Assembly (NCBI GenBank): GCA_020049775.1
Contig: JAGVLO010000006.1
Coordinates: 2,666-66,665 of the forward strand
Direction of reading: 5' to 3'
DNA: 64,000 bases
Source of the DNA: Alphaproteobacteria bacterium
Lineage (GTDB): Bacteria > Pseudomonadota > Alphaproteobacteria > Rickettsiales > SXRF01
Shown here piece after piece: positions 6,111-55,865 of this stretch. The notes under the pieces are model-generated. The model worked only from the letters and a program-made list of their open reading frames with translations. It was not told where the DNA came from and did not search any database. How positions within the stretch are numbered: the stretch's first letter is position 1; each line of letters begins with the position of its first letter. Both the position numbers and the translations under genes were made by a program.

Positions 6111-6312
6111 TTTGCGCCTCCATCCAAGCAAAGAAGGCAGCTTCATCAATCAGCACGCGGCGGCCACAGCGGCGGATGACTTTCTTAAAGCCGTTCTTTT
6201 CGGCATGAAATATGAGATGACGCAGTCCGCCAATCGGCGGCCATTGATGATACTCGTTCCATTGGGTTACGGGAATCAGCCGTGTCTTGGGATGCTCGGT
6301 ATTGGGTTCCAT
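6103..6312 (-). CDS. Excisionase/AlpA-like helix-turn-helix DNA-binding protein.
   Basis: ~69 aa. ...IPVTQWNEYHQWPPIGGLRHLIFHAEKNGFKKVIRRCGRRVLIDEAAFFAWMEAQ resembles excisionase-family HTH proteins. AGGAG lies 7 nt before the ATG at 6312. Located between int and the primase. Confidence 0.55.
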   Translation of the reverse strand: MEPNTEHPKTRLIPVTQWNEYHQWPPIGGLRHLIFHAEKNGFKKVIRRCGRRVLIDEAAFFAWMEAQNG

Positions 6313-6409
6313 AGGTAGCTCCTGTTGTATAATGCGCAGCAATATCGCTGCGTACCGAGCAACCTATGGATGGATGGCGATGAAAAATATGCGCTACACG
6401 CAGCGCATG

Positions 6410-6832
6410 TCAGGAGTGCAAATTATTATTCTTATCTTTAATCCGCTTAGATGGTCTGCCGCGCTTATTTTCTTTTGGACGCGGATCGACTTCGGCAATC
6501 CAATCATAAACCGTGCGTTCCCCGCCATAACGGTTAGCACCGGTAATATCCTGATCACAAATATCAGGATGCGCACAAAGTTCCGTAATGGTGTAGCTAG
6601 GATTCTGTTTCCATAACAGCTTTGCAATTGCCTGGCATTTCGCTTTGGTAAATTGCTCTGCGCGCGGTGTATGTTCCTTCTTTTGCGAAGTGGACGTAGA
6701 TTGCTCTAAGGCCTTTTCGATCTTCGATATGCGGCTGGTAATCTCCAGATACTGCATATATTCCGGGTCATTTTTCGGATCGAGAGCTTTAAATGTTTTC
6801 CTGAGTATCTTTTGGAGCCTTGGGTCTGTCAT
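6410..6832 (-). CDS. Hypothetical protein (island backbone), basic C-terminus.
   Basis: ORF immediately downstream of int (int stop 6837, ATG 6832). No family recognised. Confidence 0.4.
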   Translation of the reverse strand: MTDPRLQKILRKTFKALDPKNDPEYMQYLEITSRISKIEKALEQSTSTSQKKEHTPRAEQFTKAKCQAIAKLLWKQNPSYTITELCAHPDICDQDITGANRYGGERTVYDWIAEVDPRPKENKRGRPSKRIKDKNNNLHS

Positions 6833-6836
6833 AGCC

Positions 6837-7898
6837 CTACCCAAATATCTTCTGGTTCATGCTTTCCACCACCTTTGCCGTGTGTGCTTCGGAGAGATGG
6901 CTATAGCGCTTCACCATGGCCAGGGTTTTGTGGCCAAGCACTTCGGCAATCTCGGCCAACGATGCGCCGTTCATAGCCAGGTAGCTGGCAGCGCTGTGGC
7001 GTAGATCATGGAAACGGAAATCCTCGATCTTTGCTTTCTTCAATGCATCCAGCCACGTTGCGCGGCTTGACCATATCTCGCGCGGGTTGCGCGATGCGGG
7101 GAATACCAGATCGGTCGCAGTGTCACGCGCTTTATGCCATGCCTGGATTAATTCCAGCGCATGGTGCGCCAGCGGCAGCACGCGGCGTTCCTTGTTCTTG
7201 GTATCATGCAGCACGATGACTTTGCGCTTAAAATCGACATTGGGCCAGCGCAGGCTGATAAGCTCGCCGTGGCGCGCGCCGGTGGAAAGCGCCAGCACCA
7301 CCAGCAGGTAGAGTTTTTTGTCATCCATTGTCTGGCAAGCCTCCAGTAACCGCTTGCGCTCATCATCGTCCAGAAAGCGCACCCGCCCGCGCGGCTCCGG
7401 CAGCTTGGAGATTTTCTTCATGGGATGATCCTGCAGCCATTCCCATTCATTGATGGCGATGGTGAAAGCATGGCTGAGCGCGTTCATATAGCGGTTGATA
7501 GTGGCAGGCGCGCGCTTTTCCACGTTGCGGCCTTCGCTATTCAACAGCTTGTCGCGATGCTCGACAATCATTGCCTTGGTGACTTCGGATAGCAGATACG
7601 GGCCGATTTGCTCCTTCCACCAGCCCAAATACTGCTCCAACCAAATATGCCGCTTGGGATTGCGTCGCTTCACATATTCCAGGTAGCGCTCGATCAGTTC
7701 CTTGACCGTGTGCTTCTTAGCCTCTGCTGATCTAAAATATTTGCCTTCCTTGATGGCGATTTCGGTTTGCTTGCCCCATTCCTTGGCGTCGGTCTTGCGC
7801 TCGAAGGTGGCGGATTGCGTGGGGAAACCCTTGATGCGCACCTTGACGCGGTAAGTAACGCTGCCATTTTCCGTGATGCGCGTCTCGATAGTCGCCAT
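6837..7898 (-). CDS. int: Tyrosine recombinase / phage-type integrase.
   Basis: C-terminal catalytic region ...TGARHGELISLRW...HDLRHSAASYLAMNGASLAEIAEVLGHKTLAMVKRYSHL (R..HxxR..Y). ATG at 7898 with GGAGGA SD; the longer 7958 start has none. Adjacent to tRNA-Ser. Confidence 0.9.
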   Translation of the reverse strand: MATIETRITENGSVTYRVKVRIKGFPTQSATFERKTDAKEWGKQTEIAIKEGKYFRSAEAKKHTVKELIERYLEYVKRRNPKRHIWLEQYLGWWKEQIGPYLLSEVTKAMIVEHRDKLLNSEGRNVEKRAPATINRYMNALSHAFTIAINEWEWLQDHPMKKISKLPEPRGRVRFLDDDERKRLLEACQTMDDKKLYLLVVLALSTGARHGELISLRWPNVDFKRKVIVLHDTKNKERRVLPLAHHALELIQAWHKARDTATDLVFPASRNPREIWSSRATWLDALKKAKIEDFRFHDLRHSAASYLAMNGASLAEIAEVLGHKTLAMVKRYSHLSEAHTAKVVESMNQKIFG

Positions 7899-8013
7899 GC
7901 TACAGTCCTCCCCAAAAGCCCAAAACACGCTACTCCTCGACACCGCAAATGACAACATTAGTGTAACAAACTTGCGACATTATCAGTTAAGCGATTGATT
8001 TTATAATGATCCA

Positions 8014-8147
8014 CAGTGTCCCACAGAAATTTTGGGACAGTTCAGGGACAATCCCTTCGTAATCGAGCGTAGCAGCGCGTAGTAGAGCGTGCCGCAGCGT
8101 AGAAGAAGGTCAGTTTTTTATTCCAACTGTCCCGCCAGTGTCCCACG
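8014..8147. promoter_or_regulatory. Repeat-rich att-proximal region between int and tRNA-Ser; candidate recombinase/accessory-protein binding sites.
   Basis: CAGTGTCCCAC occurs twice (8014..8024, 8136..8146). The TGTCCC/GGGACA unit occurs 5 times, including the inverted pair TGTCCCA-N9-TGGGACA (8018..8040). Four 10-bp-phased blocks each ending in GCGT lie at 8061..8100. Confidence 0.5.
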
Positions 8148-8171
8148 GAGCTGTTCTTAACCTTCAAAGTT

Positions 8172-8261
8172 TGGCGGAGGGGGTGGGATTTGAACCCACG
8201 AGAACCTTGCGATTCTGCCGGTTTTCAAGACCGGTTCCTTAAACCACTCGGACACCCCTCC
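8172..8261 (-). tRNA. tRNA-Ser (anticodon UGA), CCA encoded.
   Basis: RC reads GGAGGGGTGTCCGAGTGGTTTAAGGAACCGGTCTTGAAAACCGGCAGAATCGCAAGGTTCTCGTGGGTTCAAATCCCACCCCCTCCGCCA. It has a 7-bp acceptor stem, anticodon loop CUUGAAA, a long variable arm and a GGTTCAAATCC T-loop. Confidence 0.9.
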
Positions 8262-8441: not shown

Positions 8442-8792
8442 CTACCAATCTTTAAAAATCACATAAACCGCAAGGCAAATCAGGCCAAACCCCAGCAAAT
8501 GATTCCATTTCAGGCTTTCGCCGAGATAGAATACGGAAAATACCATGAATACCAGCAAGGTGAGTACTTCCTGAATGGTTTTTAGTTCCACGGCAGAAAA
8601 ATAGCCATGTCCATAGCGGTTGGCAGGCACTTGCAGGCAATATTCGAAAAAAGCGATTCCCCAGCTTATGAGGATTACTATAAACAAAGGCTTGTCTTTA
8701 AACTTGAGGTGTCCATACCATGCAAAAGTCATAAAAATATTTGAAAGCGTTAATAAGCCAATGGTCACAAATGATGTGAAATGCGGTAGCAT
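8442..8792 (-). CDS. Small DMT-superfamily membrane protein (DUF486-like).
   Basis: 116 aa, 4 predicted TM helices. The MLPH..IGLL..SNIFMTFAWYGHLKF start is typical of DUF486 proteins. Confidence 0.6.
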   Translation of the reverse strand: MLPHFTSFVTIGLLTLSNIFMTFAWYGHLKFKDKPLFIVILISWGIAFFEYCLQVPANRYGHGYFSAVELKTIQEVLTLLVFMVFSVFYLGESLKWNHLLGFGLICLAVYVIFKDW

Positions 8793-8992
8793 GTGCGGGT
8801 TTCCCTTGTGATATGACGTTGCGTGCGTAATAGAATCAACCTGGCTCTTGTCAGGATTCGGGCCTGATTTCCATTAAGAATAATTATAAAAATCAACTAT
8901 ATTTTAATATTACGATAACTATGTTATGGTAATAAACCATACCAAAATAAAATTAAACATCTTGAGTTGAGTTTCTGACAGGCAGGATAAAC

Positions 8993-9217
8993 ATGCAGAT
9001 ATTACCTTACCCCATAAAAATTGAAGCGGTGATATTTACTCTTGCCTTAAGTTTTTTGATGTTCATTGGAGGGGCTGCAACAGTTCATTATAAAATCCCG
9101 CTCTTTTATGATGCTTTTGCGATAGTGTTTCCAGAACAGAAAATGACTAAAGAAGAGCGAAAAGAGAATATTCTCAAACAAAAGATGGAAAAGAAAAGAA
9201 ACTCGGGACAGTTGTAG
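8993..9217 (+). pseudogene. N-terminal fragment (TM anchor + charged linker) of a third arylsulfotransferase-like paralog, or a short stand-alone derivative.
   Basis: SFLMFIGGAATVHYKIP...KEERKENILKQKMEKKRNS aligns with SFLSFLMGAATLHFENP...EEMQREKNS (10994 gene) and FFAGGTSIYYKT...EEMEKQKNS (9550 gene). It stops before the propeller part. Confidence 0.45.
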
Positions 9218-9261
9218 GCAGATATTTAACAAGGATTTTTAATAGAATTATAGGGTATAAA

Positions 9262-9501
9262 ATGCACAAACTCATGGCTCTGCTGCTTATATTGAACGTT
9301 TTTTTACACACCTCTCCAGCAATTGCTTATATTGGTCCAGGCGCCGGAATATTACTACTTGGCCCTATGTTCACTATGCTTGCAGCGGTGGGTGTAGCTA
9401 TATTGATGTTATTGTTGTGGCCATTAATGGCGATACGGCGCAAGCGTAAAACAGCCAAGAAATCCACCACAGATAAGGATGCATCAGCGCCACCAAAATA
9501 A
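9262..9501 (+). CDS. Small membrane protein with an N-terminal signal/anchor and a YIGPGAG motif.
   Basis: 79 aa, two hydrophobic segments, basic tail RRKRKTAKK. Function unknown. Confidence 0.4.
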   Translation: MHKLMALLLILNVFLHTSPAIAYIGPGAGILLLGPMFTMLAAVGVAILMLLLWPLMAIRRKRKTAKKSTTDKDASAPPK

Positions 9502-9549
9502 ACGAGATATAAAATAGGCCTAGGCTATTAAACCACCAAGTGAGTACGC

Positions 9550-10926
9550 ATGAAATTTATAAAAAATATACCGCACCTGAAAATAGCACTTTTTTATATT
9601 TTGCTTGTTTTGGCAGCTTTTTTTGCGGGTGGTACGAGCATCTACTACAAGACATTTGTTGGTCAGGCAATAAAAGATGCGCTTAACGGTGTTGAAGAAT
9701 GGCAGAAAGAGGCCGAAGTTGAGCAAGTAGAAATGGAAGAAATGGAGAAGCAGAAAAACTCCAAAGTAACGGTTGCTCTGCTGAAGTACAGGGAGGGCAC
9801 TTATCCTGGATTTACACTATTTACAACACATCATGACCAGAAAGCACGCCTCTTGGACATGAAAGGGAATATTGTGCATCAATGGGAAAAGCCATTTAAT
9901 GAAGCTTTTCCGAAGCCGGACCATGTCACTAAGCCAAGAGGCCGTATTCACTGGTCGGATGCGCGATTGTTCCCAAATGGTGACCTGATCGTCCAATACC
10001 ATGGAGCGTTAGATACGCCGTATGGTTATGGCCTGGTCAAAATGGATAAGAATTCAACATTGATATGGAATTACCGTGCCAATACCCACCATACGTTTGA
10101 TATTGGTGAAGATGGACGTATTTATGGTTTGTCACAAAAATGGTATAAAAAACCTATCAATGGCTTTCCTTTTATAAAGCCGCCCGCATTGTTAGATTCC
10201 ATTTATGTACTTAGTCCAGATGGAAAAGAACTCAGCACTGTTGATATCATAGATACCTTTCGTGATACGCCTTATAAAGACTTGCTCAGAATTACCGATC
10301 CTGTATGGCGTGCGCTGGGTGATTATTTTCATACTAATTCCATCAGTGTCTTGAGAAATGATGTAAAATATAGCATTCCAGGTGTTAAGCCTGGCATGGT
10401 GCTGGTGTCGATTCGTAATCCGGATGTGCTTTGTATAATAGATATTGAGAAGCGGCGCACTGTATGGGCGTCCAGAGGCCCGTGGAAGCAGCAGCACAGC
10501 GCATATTTTACACCTGATGGCATGATCAGCGTTTATGATAATCAGGGTTGGGGAAAGCGTCGGACCCGTGTGATGGAATTCGATCCGCTTACTCTCAAAG
10601 AGACCTGGTCGTTTCCTAAACGTAAGGAGGATTATTTTTATAGTAATATCCGTGGACGCAGCGCTCTACTACCTAACGGTAATGTGACAATCGCCAAATC
10701 AAACGATGGCCACATCATTGAGGTCAACCGCAATTCCAGGGCTTTGTGGGAAGTAAAGGTAGAGAGAGAATATCAAAATGGCGAAACCGTCCGGCAGATT
10801 GTTTCTACAGGACTGCGATACACAAAGGAAGAGTTGCCCTTTATGTCGGGTATAGATCCGCTTGGAACGACGTCACCCAGTACAGAAGAAAATAACACGT
10901 TAGATGAGGCATCAGATAAAGAATAA
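9550..10926 (+). CDS. Arylsulfotransferase (ASST)-like beta-propeller protein, membrane-anchored, paralog 1.
   Basis: N-terminal TM helix. Motifs FPNGDLIVQYHG, THHTFD, GDYFHTNSI and DNQGWG resemble the ASST family. About 70% identical by eye to the next gene over long stretches. Confidence 0.5.
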   Translation: MKFIKNIPHLKIALFYILLVLAAFFAGGTSIYYKTFVGQAIKDALNGVEEWQKEAEVEQVEMEEMEKQKNSKVTVALLKYREGTYPGFTLFTTHHDQKARLLDMKGNIVHQWEKPFNEAFPKPDHVTKPRGRIHWSDARLFPNGDLIVQYHGALDTPYGYGLVKMDKNSTLIWNYRANTHHTFDIGEDGRIYGLSQKWYKKPINGFPFIKPPALLDSIYVLSPDGKELSTVDIIDTFRDTPYKDLLRITDPVWRALGDYFHTNSISVLRNDVKYSIPGVKPGMVLVSIRNPDVLCIIDIEKRRTVWASRGPWKQQHSAYFTPDGMISVYDNQGWGKRRTRVMEFDPLTLKETWSFPKRKEDYFYSNIRGRSALLPNGNVTIAKSNDGHIIEVNRNSRALWEVKVEREYQNGETVRQIVSTGLRYTKEELPFMSGIDPLGTTSPSTEENNTLDEASDKE

Positions 10927-10993
10927 TATGTCTCTTTCTCTGATAACAACTGCGTAGTTACCAATCTGAACTTAGCCTAGGCACAAAAATTAT

Positions 10994-12322
10994 ATGAAAC
11001 CATTCAGGCGGCTGGAAGTCATATTATTTCTACTTAGTTTGACGTTTTTGTCATTTCTAATGGGCGCCGCAACCCTCCATTTTGAGAATCCGATCGGATT
11101 CAAGCTGAAGAATGCATTTGATGGTATCAGTGTATGGCGCGAGCAGGCTTTGGCAGAGCGTATTGAGTTGGAGGAAATGCAGCGAGAGAAAAATTCTGCA
11201 TTGGAAGTTAGCTTGGTCAGGCGTAGTCAAGGGGCGTATGAGGGTTATACGCTCTATACGCTTTATAATGAGCAGAAGGCGCATCTATTAAACATGGATG
11301 GTACCAAGATACATGAATGGAACAAACCGTTTGAGGATGTGTTTCCGGAGCCAAAGCATGTTACAAAACCGAAAGGGCGTATTTACTGGGCGGATGCCAA
11401 GCTTTTTCCAAATGGTGACTTATTAGTTCAGTATCATGGCGCAATCGATACACCATACGGATACGGCATGGCCAAGCTTGATAAGAATTCTAAAGTAATA
11501 TGGTCATATGCAAGCAATACACACCATGAATTTGATATTGATAAAAACGGCAATATTTATGGGCTTACACAGAAATGGTACAAAGAACCTATTCCTGATT
11601 ATTCCGATATCATAAGCCCACCGGCTTTGCTGGACAGTATTTTTGTATTGAACGCGGAGGGGAAAGAACTGCAAAAATTTGACTTGATTGATGCATTTCG
11701 TGGCACTCCTTATCAGGAGTTGTTACGCATTGACAGTATAGCCTGGAAAATACAGGGAGATTATTTTCATACAAACTCGATCAGGGTCCTTAAGGAGCAT
11801 GTGGATTACACTATTCCGGGCGTTAAGGCGGGACAGGTTCTTGTTTCCATACGCAACCCAGGCATTATATGCATAATTGATCTTGAAACCAAACGCGTTG
11901 TATGGGCAACAAAAGGACCATGGAAACAGCAGCACAGCGTACATTTCATAGATGATGGAAAAATTATGATGTTCGACAATCAGGGCTGGGGAGGCGGGCG
12001 CAGCAGGGTGATGGCCATAGACCCTGTAACACTTAAAGAAACGTGGTCTTTTCCGGTCGAAGAGAAAGACTACTTCTACTCTAAAATACGGGGTATGAGC
12101 CATTTGCTTCCTAATGGGAATGTACTAATTACCGATTCCAATAATGGCAGAATTTTTGAAGTAGGTAGTAAAGGGGATGTGTATTGGGAGGTAAAGATTG
12201 ATCGTTTATATACGGATGGCAAGAAATACGGTCAGGTCATTTGCAGCGGTTCACGCTACTCACAAAACTCACTGCCATTTGTTGCAGATATTATTATAAA
12301 TAAACGCCAAAATATACCATGA
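10994..12322 (+). CDS. Arylsulfotransferase (ASST)-like beta-propeller protein, membrane-anchored, paralog 2 (tandem duplicate).
   Basis: Same architecture and motifs as 9550..10926 (FPNGDLLVQYHG, THHEFD, GDYFHTNSI, DNQGWG). Confidence 0.5.
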   Translation: MKPFRRLEVILFLLSLTFLSFLMGAATLHFENPIGFKLKNAFDGISVWREQALAERIELEEMQREKNSALEVSLVRRSQGAYEGYTLYTLYNEQKAHLLNMDGTKIHEWNKPFEDVFPEPKHVTKPKGRIYWADAKLFPNGDLLVQYHGAIDTPYGYGMAKLDKNSKVIWSYASNTHHEFDIDKNGNIYGLTQKWYKEPIPDYSDIISPPALLDSIFVLNAEGKELQKFDLIDAFRGTPYQELLRIDSIAWKIQGDYFHTNSIRVLKEHVDYTIPGVKAGQVLVSIRNPGIICIIDLETKRVVWATKGPWKQQHSVHFIDDGKIMMFDNQGWGGGRSRVMAIDPVTLKETWSFPVEEKDYFYSKIRGMSHLLPNGNVLITDSNNGRIFEVGSKGDVYWEVKIDRLYTDGKKYGQVICSGSRYSQNSLPFVADIIINKRQNIP

Positions 12323-12334
12323 TGAATTCATTTG

Positions 12335-13456
12335 ATGAATAAACCTGTGTCCAAAAAATTTGTACAACCCCCATTTTTACGCACGCATATAGGGCATTTT
12401 TTGTACCGTAATCCTTCACTTGCGATAGCTTTAGGAAAATTCGAGTCATCGCTGCTGGCCATAGATGAGAATGACAGGCCAATAAAAAGCCCTATTTACA
12501 TCAACGGTCTTGCACGCTCCGGCAGCACCATATTGCTGGAGCTGCTTTCCTCGCATGCCGGTATTGCCACGCACCGCTACGAAGACTTCCCGTTTGCCAT
12601 CACGCCATGGTGGTGGCGGCGCGTTATATCGCTTTCTTCATCTGGCGGTAGTAAGCCGCAGGAGAGAGCGCATCAAGACGGTATTATGGTGACCCCACAC
12701 AGTCCCGAGGCAATGGAAGAGCTGGTGTGGATGGCATTTTTCCCGCAGCTGCACGACCCAAACCATAGTGCGGTACTTACGGCGGAATCATTGAATCCGG
12801 AATTTGAAATATTCTACCGGAAGCATATTATAAAAATACTTATGCTTGAAAAAGCGCAGCGCTACCTTGCCAAGGGTAATTACAACACCACGCGCATGGG
12901 CTACCTGCAGCGCCTGTTTCCCGAAGCAAAATTTATCATTCCCGTGCGTAATCCGGTAACACATATCGAATCGCTGATGCGCCAGCATAAGTTATTCTCG
13001 CAAGACGGCGGGCAGAATGAGCGTGTACGCATGCATATGCAGGCGGCTGGGCATTATGAATTTGGCCCAGACAGGAGGCCTATCAATGTAGGTAATCAGG
13101 AGGTGACAAAAGCCATCTTGCAGGCGTGGGGTAGTGGTGAGGAAGTACGTGGTCTTGCTCTTTTGTGGAATGATGTGTATGGGTTTGTTCATAAACAATT
13201 ATCGTATCAACCTGATCTAAAGCGTGCAACGATGGTTATCAGGCAGGAAGATTATCTGGCTGATACTGCGCCGGTAATAAGAAAGCTGTGGGATCATTGC
13301 CAGCTTGAAGCCGACAGCAAGCTTCTTGCGTTGTTTGGCGAGAGGACGAAAGAGAAAAAAGAATTTTCCACTTCACTTTCAACAAAAGATATAGGGATTA
13401 TCCACGAAATTACAGCTAACACTGCGGCCTTGTACGGCTATGACAAACTTACATAG
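12335..13456 (+). CDS. PAPS-dependent sulfotransferase family protein.
   Basis: 5'-PSB-like motif INGLARSGSTILLELL and 3'-PB-like IIPVRNPVTHIESL. ATG at 12335, one codon after the TTG in the ORF track. Confidence 0.65.
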   Translation: MNKPVSKKFVQPPFLRTHIGHFLYRNPSLAIALGKFESSLLAIDENDRPIKSPIYINGLARSGSTILLELLSSHAGIATHRYEDFPFAITPWWWRRVISLSSSGGSKPQERAHQDGIMVTPHSPEAMEELVWMAFFPQLHDPNHSAVLTAESLNPEFEIFYRKHIIKILMLEKAQRYLAKGNYNTTRMGYLQRLFPEAKFIIPVRNPVTHIESLMRQHKLFSQDGGQNERVRMHMQAAGHYEFGPDRRPINVGNQEVTKAILQAWGSGEEVRGLALLWNDVYGFVHKQLSYQPDLKRATMVIRQEDYLADTAPVIRKLWDHCQLEADSKLLALFGERTKEKKEFSTSLSTKDIGIIHEITANTAALYGYDKLT

Positions 13457-21359: not shown

Positions 21360-23183
21360 TCAGCGTGTTCTTGTTGTTTCGGGCTTTTTACTATTGCCCT
21401 GTTCACTGAACTGAATGAGTAATGCCTCTCCGGTTTTGCGGCACTCCTCGTCATCTAATACAGCGCCTATGCCAAGGGCTTTGGCGAATGCACCGGCAGC
21501 AGGCTGCAGCTGGTTGAACCTACCGCTGGCTACCCAGTCGGTAATAATCCAGTGTGGAACACCTGAGCTTGCCGCCAGTTCGTGACCATCCATGCCCGAA
21601 AGTTTTACCAGTGTTTTGCGTGTCTCTTTTTTATTTATGCCTGCGCCTTGTGCAGCAAGCACTTCGGCAGGGTTGTAGGTCGAAAGTGTTCCATGTACGG
21701 CTCGTACGGTGAATTCACGCGCCTCATCACCGGATAGTCCGCAAAACTCCGCCAATTTGCGTGCATAGTGATGTTTCTTAAGCCCGGCGCCTTGTTGCAG
21801 GAAGGGGCCAAGCCGCGTGTATCCAGTTGCTTTTTCGGTGTCGGTAATGGAGCAGCCCTTTCTATCCATGACTTTTCGTATCATGTCGGTGAGCGTCATC
21901 TGCCCGCTGCGTACCTGTGCGAATAAGTTTTGCGGCGGTTCGATGCCGGTAAGCATACTGGTGGCATTTTCACGCAAAGTGGGGTCAACGCATTTCAGCT
22001 TGTTGAGGATGCATGTTGCATGCTCCTCGAAAAGCGGCAGCTGGCCAGCCTTCATTTTATATAGCATGTCGCGGCTGACATCTAGCAACTGCATTTGCTG
22101 CGCTTCTGACAGGTCGATGATGCCATGGCGGCCAAGCAAAAGATTGATAAGTTTTACCGATGGCTTTTCATCTTTTGACGCTTCTTCAAGCAATTGGTCC
22201 AGCCCTTTATCGAGCGGGCGGTTGGTCATCAGCGCCAGCATCTTTTCCACATTTTCGCTGTAGCGTTTACTTTCATCCTCGTTGCGGATGAGGTCTTTGT
22301 GGTAATTGATTTTGATAAAATCTTCCGCTGTTTTTGAGGAATCCGGTGTCATGCCATGTTTGTGCCAACCATGGATGGTGGGGTGAGGAATGCCGGTGAA
22401 ACGTGTAATCGCACTTTCCGAAATGCCTGAATATTGAAGCAGTGCATCTACCAGCTTTGATTTGTCATTGCTGCTTTGCGCGTCGGCTAGTGCTTTCTCT
22501 ATATTGATATCGCTACCGCGCGACATTTTATGCAGCATGAGTTCGGTGGCCTGTGTAAAGGCGTAGGCGTGCGCCAACATGTCAATGACGGTGGCGCGTG
22601 GCTGCGATTCGTCCGGATGTGTTGCCATATGCCGCAGATACCCGCCGGAAATATTATCTTTGCTGCTGTAATCTTTTTTGTCCTCAAGCCTGCTTTCAAG
22701 CATTTCCGCTAAGTCTTCGGCTGAGCATTGCTCCAGCTCCAGCAGGCCCGCAACGACATGGCCGAATTTCTTGCCGTCGCGGTAGCAATCCGTTACCAGT
22801 TTTGTGTAGCGCTCCTGATGCTGTGCTTCCATTTCCGCCAGCGCCGGCTCATAGGATTTGACTTCACGATGAGGAATAACGGGAAAACCAGATTCAACAG
22901 CCTGTTCATGCGCTTGCTGGCATAATGACAGGAAGCCTGCTCTATCAGCAGGGCTTATTTGCAGGAAGTGCTTGCACATCGCATTGCCAATATCACGGGT
23001 GATGGCGAGCTTTCCGTCGATGATATCGCGTAGGTACAAATCTCCGAAGGCATCCACATCGACGCCAGTCATTTCAAGCTCCATCAGGAATTCATCCATT
23101 TTTTCTGGAGGTATGCGTACATTCACCTTCTCCACTATATGGGCGGCCACGCGTATTACAGACTCGGGTGCTTGAATATCCAT
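21360..23183 (-). CDS. Hypothetical protein built from several HTH (Cro/C1-like) looking modules.
   Basis: Repeated segments of the type LSGMDGHELAASSGVPHWIITDWVASG, YSGISESAITRFTGIPHPTIHGWHKHG, KGCSITDTEKATGYTRLGPFLQQG and LLGRHGIIDLSEAQQMQLLDVSRDMLYKMKAG. No enzymatic motif seen. Confidence 0.45.
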   Translation of the reverse strand: MDIQAPESVIRVAAHIVEKVNVRIPPEKMDEFLMELEMTGVDVDAFGDLYLRDIIDGKLAITRDIGNAMCKHFLQISPADRAGFLSLCQQAHEQAVESGFPVIPHREVKSYEPALAEMEAQHQERYTKLVTDCYRDGKKFGHVVAGLLELEQCSAEDLAEMLESRLEDKKDYSSKDNISGGYLRHMATHPDESQPRATVIDMLAHAYAFTQATELMLHKMSRGSDINIEKALADAQSSNDKSKLVDALLQYSGISESAITRFTGIPHPTIHGWHKHGMTPDSSKTAEDFIKINYHKDLIRNEDESKRYSENVEKMLALMTNRPLDKGLDQLLEEASKDEKPSVKLINLLLGRHGIIDLSEAQQMQLLDVSRDMLYKMKAGQLPLFEEHATCILNKLKCVDPTLRENATSMLTGIEPPQNLFAQVRSGQMTLTDMIRKVMDRKGCSITDTEKATGYTRLGPFLQQGAGLKKHHYARKLAEFCGLSGDEAREFTVRAVHGTLSTYNPAEVLAAQGAGINKKETRKTLVKLSGMDGHELAASSGVPHWIITDWVASGRFNQLQPAAGAFAKALGIGAVLDDEECRKTGEALLIQFSEQGNSKKPETTRTR

Positions 23184-23668
23184 TACGCAACTTTATTTAC
23201 AGTAGGGTTGTATGTCATAATAATATAAAGACTTAGCATACAGAAAAGATTAAGTTTGGCAATAAACAGCCCAAATTAAAATTAATAAAAATTAATTCTG
23301 TGGGCGAAACGATACTGCGACAAGCATTAAAAAAGACGGATGCTAAAAAACAAAAAAATCCTGTGTCTAAAACATATAAGTTTTTTGCAGAGCAGCAAAA
23401 ATATCTGTTTGGTAAATAGTATTTATTCACGAAATAATTATTCCTTAACTGGAATCGTTTCTTTCCCGAATTAACTAAAATTCCTTATTTGACAAATATT
23501 AATCAGTGGACGAGTCATTCATCCTATGTTAGCAAACGAAAATCCTACTTTAATTTCCGCACATCACTTAATACGCGCATCAGACGCGTACGGTGTGCCG
23601 AGTACTCAAGACCAATTTTAGAACTATAACAGTAATAAAAACACAGAATTAAAACACTGGGGGGATTT

Positions 23669-36057: not shown

Positions 36058-36399
36058 TTATTTCGATGATTGCAGCGCAGATAAGCCGGAATCTTTATCT
36101 TCTGGGCAGTCTGGCAGGCATAAAAGATGATCTGGCCGCTCCCTGTCCAGCGCGGTGGTAAGAAATTGTTGCTTGTTGCGCGTAATGGCAATTACCGGGA
36201 TTTCACTTTTATTCTTCCTAATGAAAAAAGAGATTCCCTTTTGTAAGCTCAGGATTGCCTGTTCTTCAGACAGCTTCCAGGGCTTACCATCAGGACGTTT
36301 GCCCCCAATAAATGCGATGCATTTATCCGGGTAGCTGCCCTCGGCCTTGGTGACGTAGCTGATTTCGATGTTGCGGGTGGCTTTGCTTTTATACTGCAT
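36058..36399 (-). CDS. DUF3892-like small protein.
   Basis: 113 aa. ...CIAFIGGKRPDGKPWKLSEEQAILSLQKGISFFI...LLCLPDCP matches my recollection of the DUF3892 pattern (W.ls..eai..i..G..F.v ... L..LP.C). Confidence 0.5.
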   Translation of the reverse strand: MQYKSKATRNIEISYVTKAEGSYPDKCIAFIGGKRPDGKPWKLSEEQAILSLQKGISFFIRKNKSEIPVIAITRNKQQFLTTALDRERPDHLLCLPDCPEDKDSGLSALQSSK

Positions 36400-36581: not shown

Positions 36582-36617
36582 CATCGACTTTTGCAGCCCT
36601 TTGTTTATAATAGCCGA
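36582..36617 (+). promoter_or_regulatory. Candidate promoter with TATAAT 6 nt before the ATG (possible leaderless transcript).
   Basis: TATAAT at 36606..36611, agccga, then ATG 36618. TCGACT -35-like element at 16-17 nt spacing. Confidence 0.3.
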
Positions 36618-37919
36618 ATGCCTGAAATGATTCCGGAACCCTCTGAAACAGATAGAATCAAGCCAGATTTATCACTGGTGCATGACATTTCGTTCGCCGA
36701 TAAGAATACTTTCACTCACCCCTATCTGTCGCATTACACAAAGGATAATAAACATCTTTATTATCTTGGCGTAAAACATGGCAAAGATTTTGAAACACGC
36801 AGCCATGACATGATACTGCAGGCGGTTTCAAAGCATAAACCCCAGCTTATTGTGATTGAGGGATTGGCAACAGAAGCGGGAATCTCGCCTTCATTCGGCC
36901 TCGACCCCCAAAAACCCGGATCGGTGTCGCGGTTTTTAAATCATGAAGAAAACATCCATACCGCAGAACTCGCCCGCTCAAAAAAGATACCGTTTATAGG
37001 TGGTGAGCCTTCGTCCAAGGCAGTCTTTGAGGCGCTCGATAGGCAAGGCTATTCTAATAAAGAAACAATGGCAGCTTATTTATTACGCAATATTTCCGTA
37101 TGGAAACGCAAAGGAGGGCTTAACAAGGACATCCTTCACCAGCAAGCGGATGTATTTCTCTCAAAGGACCCTATCTTCAAACATATTCCAGAGGAAGACA
37201 GGCTTACATTTGATGAGTTTAAATCATGGTATGATTCTCATAAACACGAGCTGGGCAACAAGGATATGCTGGACGTCGTTGCGGCAGATACCAATTACAA
37301 CGGCAGACCTGATGCTAATTATTTCCAGCGTCTAACTAAAATAATGGACAGGGTTCGCGACGATCACCTGATCAATGTAATTGCCGATTCTGCCTCCGAG
37401 TATGATAAGGTCATGGTTGTGTATGGGAACGCACATCAGTTTGTATCTGCACCTGTTTTTGAAAAAATGTTTGGTGGCGAGGCGCAGAAGGAAATGCTCA
37501 CCCTGAACGAGGTGACAGCGCCTGATCCCAAAGCAGCGCCAGCAGCTTCCGTTCAAAATGCTGAAGATGTATCACAGCCGGAAAAAGCTTATACTCTGCC
37601 AAAATGGCTCAAATATGGGAGCATCGCATTGCTGGGCGCGGGCATCACGACATTGACATTAGGTGCTGCGCCCCTGGTAACGGCTGCATTGCTGGTTGGT
37701 AGCGGCATAGCATTTACTGGCAGTAAAGTGACCGAAGCTAAACCACAGCCTATGACAGCAGTGCCGGAGGTGGCTAATAACTCATCAGATTCTTCTGCAG
37801 AAAAAGATGCTGTATTGCCGAAAGCGGTTGAGCCAAATCCAAGCCGCAAGGATGGGAAATCATGGGTGGCCAGTTCAAGCCCGCCGCCTGCTGAACAGCA
37901 ACTTCCCAGATCATTATAA
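36618..37919 (+). CDS. Hypothetical protein, C-terminally membrane-anchored; possible TraB/GumN/Tiki-superfamily domain (weak).
   Basis: YYLGVKHG (GxxH-like), LIVIEG, two C-terminal hydrophobic helices. Start ATG 36618 or TTG 36591. Confidence 0.35.
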   Translation: MPEMIPEPSETDRIKPDLSLVHDISFADKNTFTHPYLSHYTKDNKHLYYLGVKHGKDFETRSHDMILQAVSKHKPQLIVIEGLATEAGISPSFGLDPQKPGSVSRFLNHEENIHTAELARSKKIPFIGGEPSSKAVFEALDRQGYSNKETMAAYLLRNISVWKRKGGLNKDILHQQADVFLSKDPIFKHIPEEDRLTFDEFKSWYDSHKHELGNKDMLDVVAADTNYNGRPDANYFQRLTKIMDRVRDDHLINVIADSASEYDKVMVVYGNAHQFVSAPVFEKMFGGEAQKEMLTLNEVTAPDPKAAPAASVQNAEDVSQPEKAYTLPKWLKYGSIALLGAGITTLTLGAAPLVTAALLVGSGIAFTGSKVTEAKPQPMTAVPEVANNSSDSSAEKDAVLPKAVEPNPSRKDGKSWVASSSPPPAEQQLPRSL

Positions 37920-37936
37920 CATTTCATATAAGCAGC

Positions 37937-37947
37937 CCATAAAACAG
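37937..37947. repeat. Left copy of the 11-nt direct repeat CCATAAAACAG bracketing GC-rich cassette 1.
   Basis: Exact match to 38448..38458. Confidence 0.8.
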
Positions 37948-37975
37948 AAACCCCACAACCCTTGCGGGTGTGGGG
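37941..37975 (-). terminator. Intrinsic terminator of GC-rich orphan gene 1.
   Basis: On the minus strand: CCCCACACCC-gcaa-GGGTTGTGGGG (10-bp GC-rich stem, one bulge) followed by TTTCTGTTTT. It begins 30 nt after the stop. Confidence 0.7.
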
Positions 37976-38004
37976 TTCTGCTGCTCATTGCTGAGCAAGT
38001 TCGA

Positions 38005-38334
38005 TCACTTGTTGCCGATCTCCAAGTAGAAGACGGCGCAGGGCACGTCGCCGTGCTTGTCCGTGATGTCGGTCAGGCCGTCCTTGTAGACGACCATGTT
38101 GACGACGTGCGGCATGAACAGCTTGTACATGCTGGGCATGAGGTTCGTGGCGAACGCCAACTCCTCGCGGGTGGGCGTGTTCCACGACATGGCCACCCAG
38201 CACTGGTAGCCGCTGTGGCGCACCACGGCCATCACCTTCTTCTCGCCCGCCTCGTCCAGCGCCTTCTTGACGGCGTTGAACGTGGTGAACTCCGGGATCG
38301 GCAGCGCGTCGAACTCTTTCGTCTCGGTGCTCAT
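38005..38334 (-). CDS. Orphan 109-aa protein of unknown function; compositionally foreign (GC3-saturated).
   Basis: ATG with AGAGGA 8 nt upstream and a TGA stop. By manual reading all codons but one (AAA) end in G/C. Local GC is clearly >60% against a mid-40s background. No family recognised. Confidence 0.7.
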   Translation of the reverse strand: MSTETKEFDALPIPEFTTFNAVKKALDEAGEKKVMAVVRHSGYQCWVAMSWNTPTREELAFATNLMPSMYKLFMPHVVNMVVYKDGLTDITDKHGDVPCAVFYLEIGNK

Positions 38335-38348
38335 GGCATCGATCCTCT

Positions 38349-38382
38349 ACCACATTTTAGTGTGGTGTTTAGGACAGTGTCC
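38349..38382 (-). promoter_or_regulatory. Two short palindromes in the leader/promoter region of orphan gene 1 (candidate operators).
   Basis: ACCACA-ttttag-TGTGGT (38349..38366) and GGACA-G-TGTCC (38372..38382), 15-50 nt upstream of the ATG. Confidence 0.35.
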
Positions 38383-38447
38383 GCAAGTTGTTTTCCTCCC
38401 TGACAAGAGAGGATAGTAAAGAAACAACTCGGAACATCCCCAATTTA

Positions 38448-38458
38448 CCATAAAACAG
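38448..38458. repeat. Right copy of the 11-nt direct repeat CCATAAAACAG bracketing GC-rich cassette 1.
   Basis: Exact match to 37937..37947. The two copies are 511 nt apart. Confidence 0.8.
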
Positions 38459-38562
38459 GGCCGCCCAATGTTACGACTTGGTTAAAATACATGAGCAAAA
38501 TCAATTGGCTGAGCCAACATGAAAAAGCCAAAATATTGATTTTTCAGGAAACTGGGAGGAAA

Positions 38563-38637
38563 TGGTGCCGCTTAAGTGATTCGAACACTTGACCTACCGC
38601 TTACAAGGCGGTTGCTCTACCCCTGAGCTAAAGCGGC
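38563..38637 (-). tRNA. tRNA-Thr (anticodon UGU), CCA encoded.
   Basis: RC reads GCCGCTTTAGCTCAGGGGTAGAGCAACCGCCTTGTAAGCGGTAGGTCAAGTGTTCGAATCACTTAAGCGGCACCA. Clean cloverleaf with anticodon loop CTTGTAA. Confidence 0.9.
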
Positions 38638-38726: not shown

Positions 38727-39296
38727 TCAGCGTGAAATGGATGATGTTTTGTCTTTTTCCTTGTCCTTTTGGGTATCAAGCCCAACCGATTCGCGGAAAC
38801 GGTCCATGTGGTCAGACATGGTTAACATGGCGCCAAGGGCAATACCGCTGACGGTGATGGCCAACCCGATGGCCTCGATTTTCTGGTTGCGATGCAGCCC
38901 TTTCCAGTAATCGGTAATACCGCGCATACCCCATGATTCAAAGCGGCTTTTTACACTCTGCCTGTATGTTTCGTTGATGCCGTGGATTGCGGTAGAAAGA
39001 TTAACTGCTGGGTTGTGCTTTGCTTCATCCATGACGGCCTTGATGGCAGTGTCCTGAATCGTTTGCAGATCAACGAAATGCTTCCTTTTGGCAAAGTTGG
39101 TGTAGATGCTGCGGCGGATGGACGCATCGCCCACATAATAGCCAACAGCCGCCGAAATAGGATAGGCGACGATATTGAGCATGCGCTCCCACATCGGCAA
39201 TTTTTCTTTTGCCGGTGGCTGGGTTGTATCCTGCGTTTTGGTGGTATTCGTATCGGCCATTTTACGTCCTTGGGTCGCGATTATGCAGGGTAGCAT
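38727..39296 (-). CDS. Hypothetical membrane protein.
   Basis: 189-aa ORF (alternative ATG at 39260, MADTNTTK...) with two hydrophobic helices. No family recognised. Confidence 0.45.
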   Translation of the reverse strand: MLPCIIATQGRKMADTNTTKTQDTTQPPAKEKLPMWERMLNIVAYPISAAVGYYVGDASIRRSIYTNFAKRKHFVDLQTIQDTAIKAVMDEAKHNPAVNLSTAIHGINETYRQSVKSRFESWGMRGITDYWKGLHRNQKIEAIGLAITVSGIALGAMLTMSDHMDRFRESVGLDTQKDKEKDKTSSISR

Positions 39297-53849: not shown

Positions 53850-53992
53850 CCATGCGCTTTACGCATGACTCGCATGTAATAATATTAATAGTTAGTTTAT
53901 TTGGCATAGCTATAGTGACGGCATGTAAGTGAGTGCTTTTGTACCACTTCTTTGTTGGGTGCAATGCCCGATAATCCTCCCTGTTATAGCTT

Positions 53993-54021
53993 GCCGAGCC
54001 TTCGTGGCTCGGCTTTTTTTT
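53993..54021 (+). terminator. Intrinsic terminator downstream of the LysR-type gene (A-run on the other side; could act bidirectionally).
   Basis: GCCGAGCC-ttcg-(T)GGCTCGGC followed by TTTTTTTT. Confidence 0.7.
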
Positions 54022-54036
54022 ATCCAGATTTTGGGC

Positions 54037-54063
54037 AAAAAAAACCCCACCTTGCGGCAGGGA
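54037..54063 (-). terminator. Intrinsic terminator of GC-rich orphan gene 2.
   Basis: On the minus strand: CCCTGCC-gcaa-GGTGGGG (7 bp with two G-U pairs) followed by TTTTTTTT. It begins ~28 nt after the stop. It shares the CCCCAC...CTTGCGG core with the cassette-1 terminator. Confidence 0.6.
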
Positions 54064-54090
54064 AAAACCGGAGTTTTTTTTGATGTCACA

Positions 54091-54456
54091 TCACACCGTC
54101 TGCGGGACGTAGTCCGAGTAGAACGCCATCAGCTTGTCGCCGACGGAGAGGTACTCGACCTTGTTGTCGTCGCTGCGGTACACGAGGTGGCCGCTGTTGA
54201 CCATCTCGCCGAGCGCCTGAATGACGCCGCGGACGAAGGGACCGCTGACCATCTGGTAGTAGATGGGGTGCGCGTTCTGCGGGCAGGCCTCCTTCATGTA
54301 CTTGAGGAAGTCCTGCGCCTTGAACTCGCCGAACACGTCGTTGTTGCGCTCCGCGAGGAAACGCACGACGTACGCGGCGACGCACTCCTTCTCACCCTTC
54401 TGGAACGACGAGTTGTTGAACACGCAGCGGACCTGGCTCGGGATGAACGTCGACAT
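54091..54456 (-). CDS. Orphan 121-aa protein of unknown function; compositionally foreign (GC3-saturated).
   Basis: ATG at 54456 with GGGAG 8 nt upstream and a TGA stop. By manual reading all codons but about four end in G/C. The in-frame upstream extension to 54567 has host-like composition and overlaps the putative -10. No family recognised. Confidence 0.7.
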   Translation of the reverse strand: MSTFIPSQVRCVFNNSSFQKGEKECVAAYVVRFLAERNNDVFGEFKAQDFLKYMKEACPQNAHPIYYQMVSGPFVRGVIQALGEMVNSGHLVYRSDDNKVEYLSVGDKLMAFYSDYVPQTV

Positions 54457-54565
54457 CTGCAACACTCCCATGAATGGGGGGTGGTAGCGGTGTGTGAAAA
54501 CACCGCAGGAAACAAACGCTGGATGCACACGCAACCAACGGAAACCCAAAGGGTTTAACATGCTC

Positions 54566-54594
54566 ATTATAGATTAATAATGGTTAACAAACAA
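54566..54594 (-). promoter_or_regulatory. Near-consensus sigma70-type promoter reading toward orphan gene 2.
   Basis: Minus strand: TTGTTT-17 nt-TATAAT (-35 at 54594..54589, -10 at 54571..54566). It gives a ~100-nt leader containing hairpins AAACCC-ttt-GGGTTT (54542..54556) and GCGGTGT-N6-ACACCGC (54487..54506). Confidence 0.4.
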
Positions 54595-54653
54595 CGTCCT
54601 GCATGTGAACATTACATGACAGATTCGGAATTATATAATTATATTACAATATA

Positions 54654-55865
<1,212 letters not shown>

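Follow-up and report, generated by a model that had tools for sequence, protein, structure and literature searches.

How a gene that ends nearly all of its codons in G or C comes to lie in DNA of intermediate composition is the question raised by the ORF at 38005..38334 (minus strand) of the 64,000-nt stretch of alphaproteobacterial DNA analysed here (the window). When a gene in a mid-GC genome has extreme GC3, this is usually taken as the mark of recent horizontal transfer, and a preliminary description of the locus read the gene as a compositionally alien cassette that had entered at a tRNA hotspot.

The composition itself was described correctly. We found 108/109 sense codons to be G/C-ended, the lone exception being the AAA at codon 6, while the stop codon is TGA. 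The comparison with other genes that the description proposed places the ORF 5.7 standard deviations above the 39 background genes of the window (GC3 0.563±0.075, maximum 0.705). Whole-ORF GC is 0.618 against local flanks of 0.43-0.47, in line with the reported contrast of >60% GC to the mid-40s, but the window as a whole is at ~0.50. With GC1 at 0.51, GC2 at 0.36, 22/109 GARP residues and 34/109 FYMINK residues in the product, the GC excess is synonymous, almost purely so, as had been claimed. Third positions are balanced between the two bases (C3 58 vs G3 50). Highly expressed genes (ribosomal protein L25, acpP) favour GAA, GCT and GTT, the opposite codons, and translational optimisation was therefore dropped as an explanation.

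The gene was also thought to be a self-contained expression unit, and this is supported by a conserved putative extended -10 element, a Shine-Dalgarno sequence and an intrinsic terminator (Table 1). The -10 element was recognised from conservation only (TGGTAAATT also in the relatives L001 and L082, TGCTATAAT in the distant orthologue L084), the consensus promoter scan having made no call at this site. The AGAGGA motif and the distance to tRNA-Thr(UGU), given earlier as about 230 nt, agree with the preliminary description, as does the terminator past the stop, a GC-rich hairpin plus T-run at 37941..37977 that is bidirectional and common to the convergent 442-aa gene. The 3´ UTR and terminator show 82-88% conservation in L001 and L082. 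Both of the palindromes noted in the leader are present (GGACACTGTCC at 38372..38382 and the CACCACA/TGTGGTA hairpin). In the predicted leader fold, GUUCC.AGUUGUU pairs with AACAACU..GGAC (P1), P2 is an inner hairpin, a GUCCU/AGGAU pairing (P3) sequesters the Shine-Dalgarno sequence and CACCACA/UGUGGUA forms a further hairpin (P4); six pairs of the consensus fold carry compensatory changes among four orthologues. The consensus fold also places GAACU, directly past the stop, in a predicted pairing with the AGUUC found in codons 15-16. Rfam covariance models gave no match to the leader besides tRNA, at the gathering threshold or at E<=10, and a single leader-motif match, in L176 (25 nt), was set aside as chance.

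Table 1. Positions of the features of the tRNA-Thr locus and of the second module in the window
Feature	Position	Strand	Details
11-bp repeat, downstream copy	37937..37947	+	CCATAAAACAG; exact; terminator T-tail read on the opposite strand
3´ UTR	37941..37997	-	small hairpin GCUCAGCAAUGAGC, then intrinsic terminator AACCCCACACCCGCAAGGGUUGUGGGGUUUCUGUUUU
GC3-saturated ORF	38005..38334	-	109 aa
Structured 5´ leader	38335..38436	-	~100 nt; predicted fold MFE -39 kcal/mol, z -3.2
Shine-Dalgarno AGAGGA	38343..38348	-	8 nt ahead of ATG
Probable extended -10 promoter element	38442..38450	-	TGGTAAATT; conserved alignment block
11-bp repeat, partner copy	38448..38458		overlaps promoter (CTGTTTTATGGTAAATT)
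Terminator-like hairpin after tRNA-Thr(UGU)	38504..38518		terminator scan
tRNA-Thr(UGU)	38563..38637	-	ARAGORN; Rfam tRNA 73.5 bits; same-strand upstream neighbour, 229 nt away
Second module, similar build	54045..54655	-	AspAT/LysR site
Second-module terminator	54045..54062	-	
Second-module ORF	54091..54456	-	121 aa, GC3 0.97
Second-module leader		-	~110 nt
Second-module promoter	TTGTTT 54589..54594; TATAAT 54566..54571		17-nt spacer with GTTAA-N6-TTAA

The reading as an insertion does not hold. The GC3-saturated gene occurs at the tRNA-Thr locus in two other congeneric species as well, with 107/108 codons G/C-ended in L001 (0.99) and 107/107 in L082 (1.00), among neighbouring genes whose GC3 in these relatives is 0.44-0.66. 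The order UbiA, GGDEF-EAL, 177/189-aa gene, tRNA-Thr, GC3-saturated gene, 413-442-aa gene, 113-aa gene, purT is kept in L001 and in L082/L083, the last two being identical in gene order at the locus, and no empty site was found, the gene being at the equivalent place in L001, L082 and L083. The preliminary description had itself named conservation of the gene and of its codon usage at this locus in relatives as grounds for abandoning insertion, and this is the situation observed. The 11-nt direct repeat that was said to bracket the unit does exist as exact copies at 37937 and 38448; it is not a target-site bracket, since 53 identical 11-mer pairs no more than 1 kb apart occur in the window and the repeat is not retained in L001 or L082, and we judge it a chance match. 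No second copy of the 3´ 24-mer of tRNA-Thr was found in the window with up to 5 mismatches allowed, and the ORFs between purT and UbiA hold no recombinase domain, in keeping with the earlier remark that neither recombinase nor transposase is present. The sole integrase of the window, at 6837..7958, lies beside tRNA-Ser in a genuine tRNA island with a PrimPol gene. An assembly chimera was rejected, the junctions being identical across four independent assemblies. The gene is thus not a recent insertion.

Comparison of the same species indicates that the composition is held in place. Synonymous sites have reached saturation in the neighbouring genes (dS 0.84-2.4), and the species compared share 94-97% identity in their housekeeping proteins. 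In the background, 331 of the 1104 G/C-ended window codons for conserved amino acids are A/T-ended in L082 (30%); in the GC3-saturated gene none of 58 is (P=1e-9). The absence of A/T gains next to saturated neighbours means that the G/C third positions are actively maintained, and the near-total exclusion of A/T from them is non-neutral. The third-position differences that do occur are almost entirely exchanges between C and G, which make up 24-26 of 25-27 differences in the two pairs with L082 and 8/10 between the window and L001, and at 4-fold sites C<->G differences reach up to 38% vs 14.6% in the background (p=0.003).

The encoded protein (109 aa, MSTETKEFDALPIPEF...) is real, given that its AlphaFold2 model, an alpha/beta protein, reaches pLDDT 81.9 (pTM 0.75) and that dN among orthologues, 0.11-0.36, is far under the neutral rate of the locus. 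The orthologous proteins evolve fast (58-82% identity), with C45, H94, D96 and C99 invariant. The preliminary description could place the product in no familiar family, and searches bear this out: Pfam gave sub-threshold matches only (E 0.06 and 0.18), PHROGs, PADLOC and PDB sequence profiles gave no match, and Foldseek of the confident model against PDB and BFVD returned nothing better than E=0.09. Among 1.84 billion representatives there are three homologue clusters, every one from this clade; no homologue was found there in any high-GC organism or virus, nor any relative among viral contigs, including IMG/VR. Two scans of genome contigs gave no close relative (none for the 442-aa neighbour, 72% at best for purT), and a search of metagenome contigs with AspAT gave a best match of 72%. 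The product therefore belongs to a clade-restricted, rapidly diversifying family of ~108-aa proteins with no known fold or family matched.

What the maintained third positions could serve is suggested by the mRNA, whose folding is treated here entirely by prediction, with shuffles that keep the same codons. The ORF has an MFE of -147.9 kcal/mol, compared with -131±5.5 for recodings that allow only G or C as third base and -92±6 for recodings with host usage. A predicted helix of the coding region joins 38233..38242 with 38030..38039. Codon-shuffle z is -3.7, -2.6, -3.4 and -6.0 in four orthologues and -0.57±0.93 in 47 background segments (p=7e-5 for cassettes vs background), an excess that is moderate for the ORF by itself (z about -3), one background segment reaching the minimum of -2.9. 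For whole transcripts z falls to -7.3, -6.4 and -6.5 (background -0.38±1.03), partly by virtue of the leader hairpins and two terminator hairpins. Compensatory changes were seen at 11/97 consensus pairs vs 4.0±1.5 in shuffles, in a test with four sequences, effectively three lineages, which had also supplied the structure under test. Per nt, the MFE is -0.448 for the window gene (GC3 0.99), -0.448 for L082 (1.00) and -0.447 for L084 (0.76), and -0.394 for L001 at GC3 0.99. GC3 falls as GC12 rises among nine cassettes, which are non-independent (r=-0.80), and rises with it in the background. Two cassettes of the type found at the second module (c2-type) do not fold clearly more stably than their shuffles (z -0.3 and -1.5). 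A stability requirement alone would not forbid every A/U third base.

We favour, with a probability of roughly one half, the reading that this is a resident gene whose GC3 saturation reflects, at synonymous sites, selection for a highly stable mRNA in which the ribosome-binding site is sequestered. The gene would have been inherited vertically in an uncultured alphaproteobacterial genus, with occasional recombination with other alleles, and would be transcribed independently from the extended -10 promoter to the bidirectional intrinsic terminator. The leader would sequester the Shine-Dalgarno sequence, the coding region would fold on itself, long-range 5´-3´ helices included, and third positions would have been recruited to G·C pairing, yielding an exceptionally stable mRNA. 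As codon positions 1 and 2 are AT-rich, all third positions would have to be G/C for the message to reach ~-0.45 kcal/mol per nt; the distant orthologue attains equal predicted folding stability at a GC3 of only 0.76. The likely outcome would be a long-lived message locked against translation, with an opening event needed for expression. Both the role of RNA stability as the selected trait and the purpose of that stability are what we infer from these predictions.

The leader and the ORF have conflicting genealogies. Leader identity is 0.93 for L001 vs L082 and 0.59-0.63 for either vs the window, while ORF identity is 0.89 for the window vs L001 and 0.71-0.72 for either vs L082. This mosaic evolution implies that recombination-linked processes also act at the locus, and it speaks for a different cause that we regard as possible, if improbable: GC-biased gene conversion, in which frequent recombination between divergent alleles under diversifying selection, with heteroduplex mismatch repair favouring G/C, would drive free third positions to G/C. 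The fast divergence of the protein and the restriction of the GC excess to the divergent part of the unit point the same way, and raised GC3 has precedent in recombining bacterial genes (PMC4450053). However, such conversion predicts neither the arrangement-specific excess of folding over same-codon shuffles nor the equal MFE per nt at differing GC3. Despite fast amino-acid turnover, GC1 and GC2 (0.51/0.36) are below the genome mean and below those of an unsaturated homologue (0.62/0.40), and polarised nonsynonymous changes (8 W>S vs 4 S>W) are not significantly biased. Effects of GC-biased gene conversion reported in bacteria amount to a few percent, far from saturation.

Avoidance of AT at the DNA level, by which the ORF would be held at ~0.6 GC to escape MucR-type nucleoid silencers or other readers of AT tracts, appears unlikely. 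Total GC is 0.59-0.63 in 8/9 cassette ORFs whatever their GC1+GC2 (background 0.51), the ORF at the tRNA-Thr locus is without any A/T run of at least 4 where recodings with host usage would hold ~27 such 4-mers, and MucR is known to silence AT-rich genes in alphaproteobacteria (PMC8857273). These observations fit such avoidance, but it leaves the excess folding over same-composition shuffles unexplained, ordinary genes of 0.50 GC are evidently expressed, and A/T third bases are shunned even between two G/C bases.

A foreign origin, whether by a recent tRNA-Thr insertion from a high-GC donor or by repeated import of alleles from a high-GC reservoir, is already largely refuted, and we give it little credence. 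It would account for a choice among G/C-ending codons that resembles high-GC bacteria, for the adjoining tRNA gene, for the 34-nt duplicate of the tRNA-Thr 3´ end in L082 and for a related c2-type module that is a true indel between congeners. Against this, all three congeners have the gene in syntenic position, neither integrase nor att copy was found, the direct repeat is a chance match and none of the three homologue clusters is high-GC or viral. A Lys:Arg ratio of 9:2 and a GC2 of 0.36 are atypical for a high-GC proteome (as, for a high-GC donor, is GC1 of 0.51), and a signature carried over passively from a donor should have faded (P=1e-9). With usage actively maintained, no high-GC homologue among the 1.84 billion representatives and no decaying donor signature, the alien origin put forward in the preliminary description does not stand.

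No more credible is a decoding constraint, in which codons would be limited to NNC and NNG, which G34 and C34 tRNAs could read whenever hypomodification, depletion or cleavage affects the wobble-U tRNAs; the rule is indeed specific to codon position, and with one exception Lys, Glu and Gln are encoded by AAG, GAG and CAG (25:1, 23:0 and 3:0, summed over three orthologues), but NNU, which shares G34 tRNAs with NNC, is absent too, and 4-fold boxes mix C and G endings about equally with no tRNA favoured. A product in another frame, for which G/C thirds would keep the codon-aligned antisense and +2 frames stop-free, is extremely improbable, for although ORFs of 198 aa (plus strand, antisense) and 122 aa (minus strand, +2) cover the gene (the only two phantom ORFs to reach 50 aa, where three had been reported) and dN/dS is lower in antisense (0.49) than in sense (0.98), the way the gene is built leaves these ORFs open in any case, strong conservation extends to antisense third positions too (dS 0.18 vs ~1.2 in neighbouring genes), the confident fold, the Shine-Dalgarno sequence and the ATG belong to the sense protein, and cassettes at GC3 0.75-0.93 do not hold such frames open.

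A second module of similar build lies at 54.1 kb in the window. It is a clean ~620-bp indel relative to L170, and L171 has four tandem paralogous modules at this site, which thus holds 0, 1 or 4 copies among relatives. These c2-type arrays consist of small divergent ORFs with conserved ~240-nt spacers, each unit having its own promoter, leader and terminator; the gene at the tRNA-Thr locus is, in contrast, single-copy and stable. The nhmmer models of the c1 and c2 leaders do not find each other, and the idea that these leaders are homologous was dropped. A CtrA box in the c2-type promoters was considered and dropped, the motif being TTAA-N6-TTAA(C), not N7.

The mRNA reading has a counterpart in type I toxin systems. 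Messages of hok-type toxins are heavily folded, with a sequestered Shine-Dalgarno sequence and long-range 5´-3´ pairing, and are stable but inert for translation. The transcript described here is compact and autonomous like those of hok/sok; a heavy fold (z -7.3), an anti-Shine-Dalgarno helix and the AGUUC/GAACU pairing are predicted for it and, by analogy, would suggest a stable message that is inert for translation. Type I toxins are small hydrophobic peptides, whereas the product here is a predicted soluble alpha/beta protein of 109 aa without homology to them in sequence, and no antisense RNA gene was identified, the terminator and promoter scan having found no antisense promoter or terminator pair.

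Mobile or modular elements of several kinds also share features with the gene or with the c2-type modules. Phage morons are autonomous promoter-ORF-terminator units of atypical composition, and the gene resembles them in having its own promoter and terminator, unrelated neighbours, deviant composition and an orphan product. It differs in that its flanks are purT, GGDEF-EAL and UbiA with no prophage, in having no PHROG, IMG/VR or BFVD relative, in its single chromosomal locus across species and in a composition that is upheld where the gene lies and does not stem from a donor. The c2-type modules are like integron cassettes and orphan immunity gene arrays in being tandem, small and divergent ORFs with ~240-nt spacers and copy numbers of 0, 1 or 4, but they have no integrase, attI or attC, carry a promoter, leader and terminator per unit and match no immunity or defence family (PADLOC). 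Nor is the gene at the tRNA-Thr locus an integron cassette, its 3´ element being an intrinsic terminator, its promoter and leader being its own and no integrase lying nearby. With tRNA-linked islands it has in common an orphan product and a tRNA gene 229 nt upstream of it; it differs from them in that an integrase and a tRNA-derived direct repeat are missing and relatives show no empty site. A diversity-generating retroelement (DGR) target was rejected, as no second copy of the ORF occurs in the window and differences between orthologues are not A-specific, and a link to gene transfer agents was dropped because their genes show raised GC1 and GC2, not GC3 (PMC7360931).

Third positions can tune mRNA folding energy (PMC2515297, PMC1242210), and the gene is akin both to such synonymous-site selection for stability and to the GC3-rich recombining genes (PMC2515297, PMC1242210, PMC4450053). 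It is unlike these cases in that GC3 is 99-100% in a genome of ~50% GC, confined to a single ORF and kept by species whose other synonymous sites are saturated. Ordinary bacterial genes have a start relieved of structure (PMC3964316); the start of this gene is not relieved of predicted structure.

Tentatively, and with considerable doubt, both module types may represent an undescribed class of thermodynamically locked whole messages, in which synonymous sites would all be spent on G·C pairing and the diversifying protein might be a toxin or abortive-infection effector or confer immunity. If true, such proteins would need to be kept silent yet stored ready for use, and the class would parallel type I toxin mRNAs with a product of protein size, and no stronger synonymous-site selection would be known in bacteria. 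The inference of recent horizontal transfer from GC3 is demonstrably wrong at this locus, where the signature is kept by selection or a selection-like bias. Should RNA stability be behind it, this gene would be a natural experiment on how far synonymous sites can serve mRNA structure, and would point to a set of small, fast-evolving and tightly locked genes in uncultured alphaproteobacteria.

Third positions are G or C in 108 of the 109 sense codons of the minus-strand ORF near tRNA-Thr(UGU), the sole exception being AAA at codon 6. GC3 is thereby 5.7 sd outside the background of 39 window genes (0.563±0.075, maximum 0.705), with GC1 of 0.51, GC2 of 0.36 and an overall GC of 0.618. Since FYMINK residues (34) outnumber GARP residues (22) and Lys:Arg is 9:2, the GC excess is synonymous, as proposed in the preliminary description, and the observation as a whole proved stronger than stated there. 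The expression signals listed in that description were also found: an AGAGGA Shine-Dalgarno sequence 8 nt 5´ of the ATG, two palindromes in the leader, a GC-rich hairpin followed by a T-run 3´ of the stop codon, and the tRNA gene 229 nt upstream. Overlapping phantom ORFs do exist, though there are two (≥50 aa) and not ORFs in three other frames. The antisense frame aligned to the codons is open only by construction, and conservation extends to its "synonymous" sites as well.

Coordinates of genes in the window referred to in the text
Feature	Position	Strand	Remark
PrimPol/DUF3987 replication protein	3277..5805	-	in tRNA-Ser element
Tyrosine integrase	6837..7958	-	in tRNA-Ser element
tRNA-Ser(UGA)	8172..8261		
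Arylsulfotransferase-like paralogues (two)	9550..10926 and 10994..12322		in low-GC block
Sulfotransferase	12332..13456		in low-GC block
113-aa protein gene	36058..36399	-	weak DUF3892 match
442-aa protein gene	36591..37919	+	hydrophobic C-terminal segment
ORF under study	38005..38334	-	109 aa
189-aa protein gene	38727..39296	-	no match
Second GC3-rich ORF	54091..54456	-	121 aa, GC3 0.97; module 54045..54655

The gene had been interpreted as an alien cassette inserted beside tRNA-Thr. A search of 5.8 billion proteins returned one homologue, P0002 (82% identity), and the only further ones, from profile searching of 1.84 billion representatives, were P0003 and P0004. P0002 is encoded on L001, a congeneric contig from a Logan run, and P0003 on L082 and L083, congeneric contigs from two JGI metagenomes; no close relative was found among GTDB species representatives. 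The names carried by close homologues of the AspAT gene, which lies elsewhere in the window, put the organism with uncultured Alphaproteobacteria (MAGs labelled "Rickettsiales bacterium"). All three contigs share the order tRNA-Thr, homologous leader, gene, same terminator and convergent 413-442-aa gene, and synteny of L082 with the window spans 17 kb, from UbiA to past purT. The orthologues have G/C at 107/108 (L001) and 107/107 (L082) third positions, with neighbour genes there at a GC3 of 0.44-0.66. The same gene, with the same codon usage, thus occupies the same locus in relatives, an outcome that the preliminary description had itself named as refuting its proposal; it is not a recent insertion, and we reject the inserted-cassette reading. 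The 11-bp direct repeat CCATAAAACAG said to bracket the unit is exact at both sites but is not conserved (CTATTTTATGG vs CTGTTTTTTGA in L001). One copy overlaps the promoter, the other is the T-tail of the terminator, and 53 identical 11-mer pairs ≤1 kb apart occur in the window. No second copy of the tRNA-Thr 3´ end was found in the window, nor any recombinase near the gene among the ORFs or by domain search.

L082 carries a second copy of the final ~34 nt of tRNA-Thr 107 nt further downstream (6571..6604 and 6677..6710; 32/34 identical), which looks like a scar of integration or excision at this tRNA; the duplicated interval does not include the gene under study. A genuine integrative element, instructive by comparison with the tRNA-Thr locus, is found beside tRNA-Ser(UGA) (3277..8261; GC3 0.62-0.70). 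The low-GC block (0.38-0.44) directly beyond it, at 8500..13456, is probably acquired cargo. GC also dips sharply, to 0.358, at 23001..23500, between a 607-aa orphan gene (21360..23183) and a 1068-aa gene starting at 23669.

Housekeeping proteins of the three species (window, L001 and L082) are 94-97% identical, while the synonymous divergence of neighbour genes is 0.84 to 2.4, with 44-58% of 4-fold sites differing. At conserved-residue codons ending in G/C in the window, seven background genes carry A/T in L082 in 331/1104 cases, compared with 0/58 comparable codons in the gene under study (P=1e-9). The GC3 composition is maintained, not inherited. The third positions of this gene are nevertheless not frozen: C<->G changes account for 24-26 of the 25-27 third-position differences in the two pairs with L082 and for 8/10 between the window and L001, and 38% of 4-fold sites that are G/C in both species differ, versus 14.6% in the background (p=0.003). 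Together with the balance of C3 and G3, these frequent exchanges indicate that the rule is "G or C" and does not favor any one codon. It also runs opposite to codon choice in highly expressed genes (L25 and acpP use GAA, GCT and GTT).

The 109-aa protein is 82, 58 and 60% identical in the pairwise comparisons, and dN is 0.11-0.36 versus 0.02-0.03 for housekeeping genes. This is far under the neutral rate, long blocks of the protein are invariant, and the apparent dN/dS of ~1 reflects depressed dS. An AlphaFold2 model from four sequences predicts an alpha/beta domain (pLDDT 81.9, pTM 0.75), with C45, H94, D96 and C99 invariant. No matches were found for the protein in Pfam, PHROGs, PADLOC or PDB sequences, or for the model in PDB or BFVD with Foldseek. 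The genes flanking the cassette are also lineage-specific orphans (75-79% identity among congeners). Leader identity is 93% between L001 and L082 but only 59-63% between either of them and the window, whereas ORF comparison groups the window with L001; given this disagreement, the locus is a mosaic, the breakpoint being close to the ATG. What is left is a real orphan gene that evolves fast and whose synonymous sites show an unusual saturation maintained by selection.

The second GC3-rich ORF, located between AspAT and LysR genes, belongs to an autonomous module of similar build, with a sigma-70-like promoter, a ~110-nt leader and a strong terminator. A word-index search gave no homologue of its protein, and an nhmmer model of either leader type did not detect the other type. 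The AspAT|LysR site is empty in L170, a contig of the closest species (11200..11430), making the module a clean ~620-bp indel, and in L174 and L177, of which L174 retains a terminator-module remnant. Other, unrelated genes occupy the site in L173 and L178. L171/L172 (NCBI GCA_974479005.1) carry four tandem modules (L171 11200..13640; GC3 0.93, 0.83, 0.75 and 0.84) with conserved promoters, leaders and terminators and highly divergent ORFs, three of them paralogues of the second GC3-rich ORF of the window (20-28% identical). Given this variation in site content, the second module type is gained and lost, while the gene under study is stable. Every module of this type has its -35/-10 spacer filled by a 16-bp palindrome, GTTAA-N6-TTAA(C) (window 54572..54588, minus strand, and four L171 promoters). 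It looks like an operator and is similar to a CtrA box, but with a spacing of N6, not N7. We also noted, at 53950..54013 (plus strand), a conserved stretch 3´ of lysR, GCCCGATAATCCTCCCTGTTATAGCT, which has a CCUCCC anti-SD-like motif and is followed by a strong intrinsic terminator (53993..54013). Nearly invariant in L170, conserved with variation in L171, L173, L174 and L178, and without an Rfam match, it resembles a 3´UTR-derived small RNA.

The distant orthologue P0004, from another genus (contigs L084-L089; locus thiC|nadD), has a GC3 of only 0.76, with GC1 (0.62) and GC2 (0.40) both above those of the gene under study. Across nine cassettes, GC3 drops with rising GC1+GC2 (r=-0.80), a relation that is positive among background genes, and total GC is 0.59-0.63 in 8/9. 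This trade-off at steady total GC pointed to a property of the whole nucleic acid, and folding was therefore tested. The predicted MFE of the ORF is -147.9 kcal/mol, versus -131±5.5 for synonymous recodings with G/C third positions and -92±6 for host-usage recodings. When synonymous codons were swapped among identical residues, preserving protein and codon counts, z was -3.7, -2.6 and -3.4 for the three orthologues with saturated GC3 and -6.0 in L084, compared with -0.57±0.93 (minimum -2.9) for 47 background segments; the difference between cassettes and background has p=7e-5. Per nucleotide, the MFE of the gene is -0.448 (window), -0.448 (L082) and -0.447 (L084) although GC3 is 0.99, 1.00 and 0.76, respectively, and -0.394 in L001 (GC3 0.99), against a background of -0.294±0.038. 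Whole predicted transcripts gave z of -7.3, -6.4 and -6.5 relative to dinucleotide shuffles, part of which is supplied by the leader and terminator hairpins; the corresponding value for 31 background segments was -0.38±1.03. In the leader, a conserved predicted helix set, where the Shine-Dalgarno sequence is paired to GUCCU, has six pairs with compensatory change. A consensus fold of four transcripts contains a long-range helix inside the ORF and pairs AGUUC (codons 15-16) with GAACU directly 3´ of the stop codon. Compensatory change in 11/97 of its pairs, versus 4.0±1.5 when shuffled and 0-6 with partners slid, is only suggestive of covariation, the structure being derived from the same four sequences. 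While ordinary bacterial genes relax structure at the start (PMC3964316), even the first codons here are G/C-ended.

As a cause of the saturation, GC-biased gene conversion draws support from the mosaic pattern at the locus and from PMC4450053, but leaves both the arrangement-specific folding and the low GC1 and GC2 unexplained. Avoidance of AT-dependent silencers (PMC8857273) does not account for the excess folding, nor does decoding-based selection account for the absence of NNU codons. A foreign origin of the gene is largely refuted. The cause that makes most coherent sense of the data is an mRNA predicted to be hyper-stable. In this best-supported reading, synonymous sites would be spent on G·C pairing that makes the message very stable and sequesters its ribosome-binding site. 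With codon positions 1 and 2 of this gene AT-rich, the stability target would be reachable only with every third position G/C, and the frequent C<->G exchanges fit flips of G·C pairs. Such stability may serve a message that lives long while its translation is locked, a logic that would resemble that of type I toxin mRNAs.
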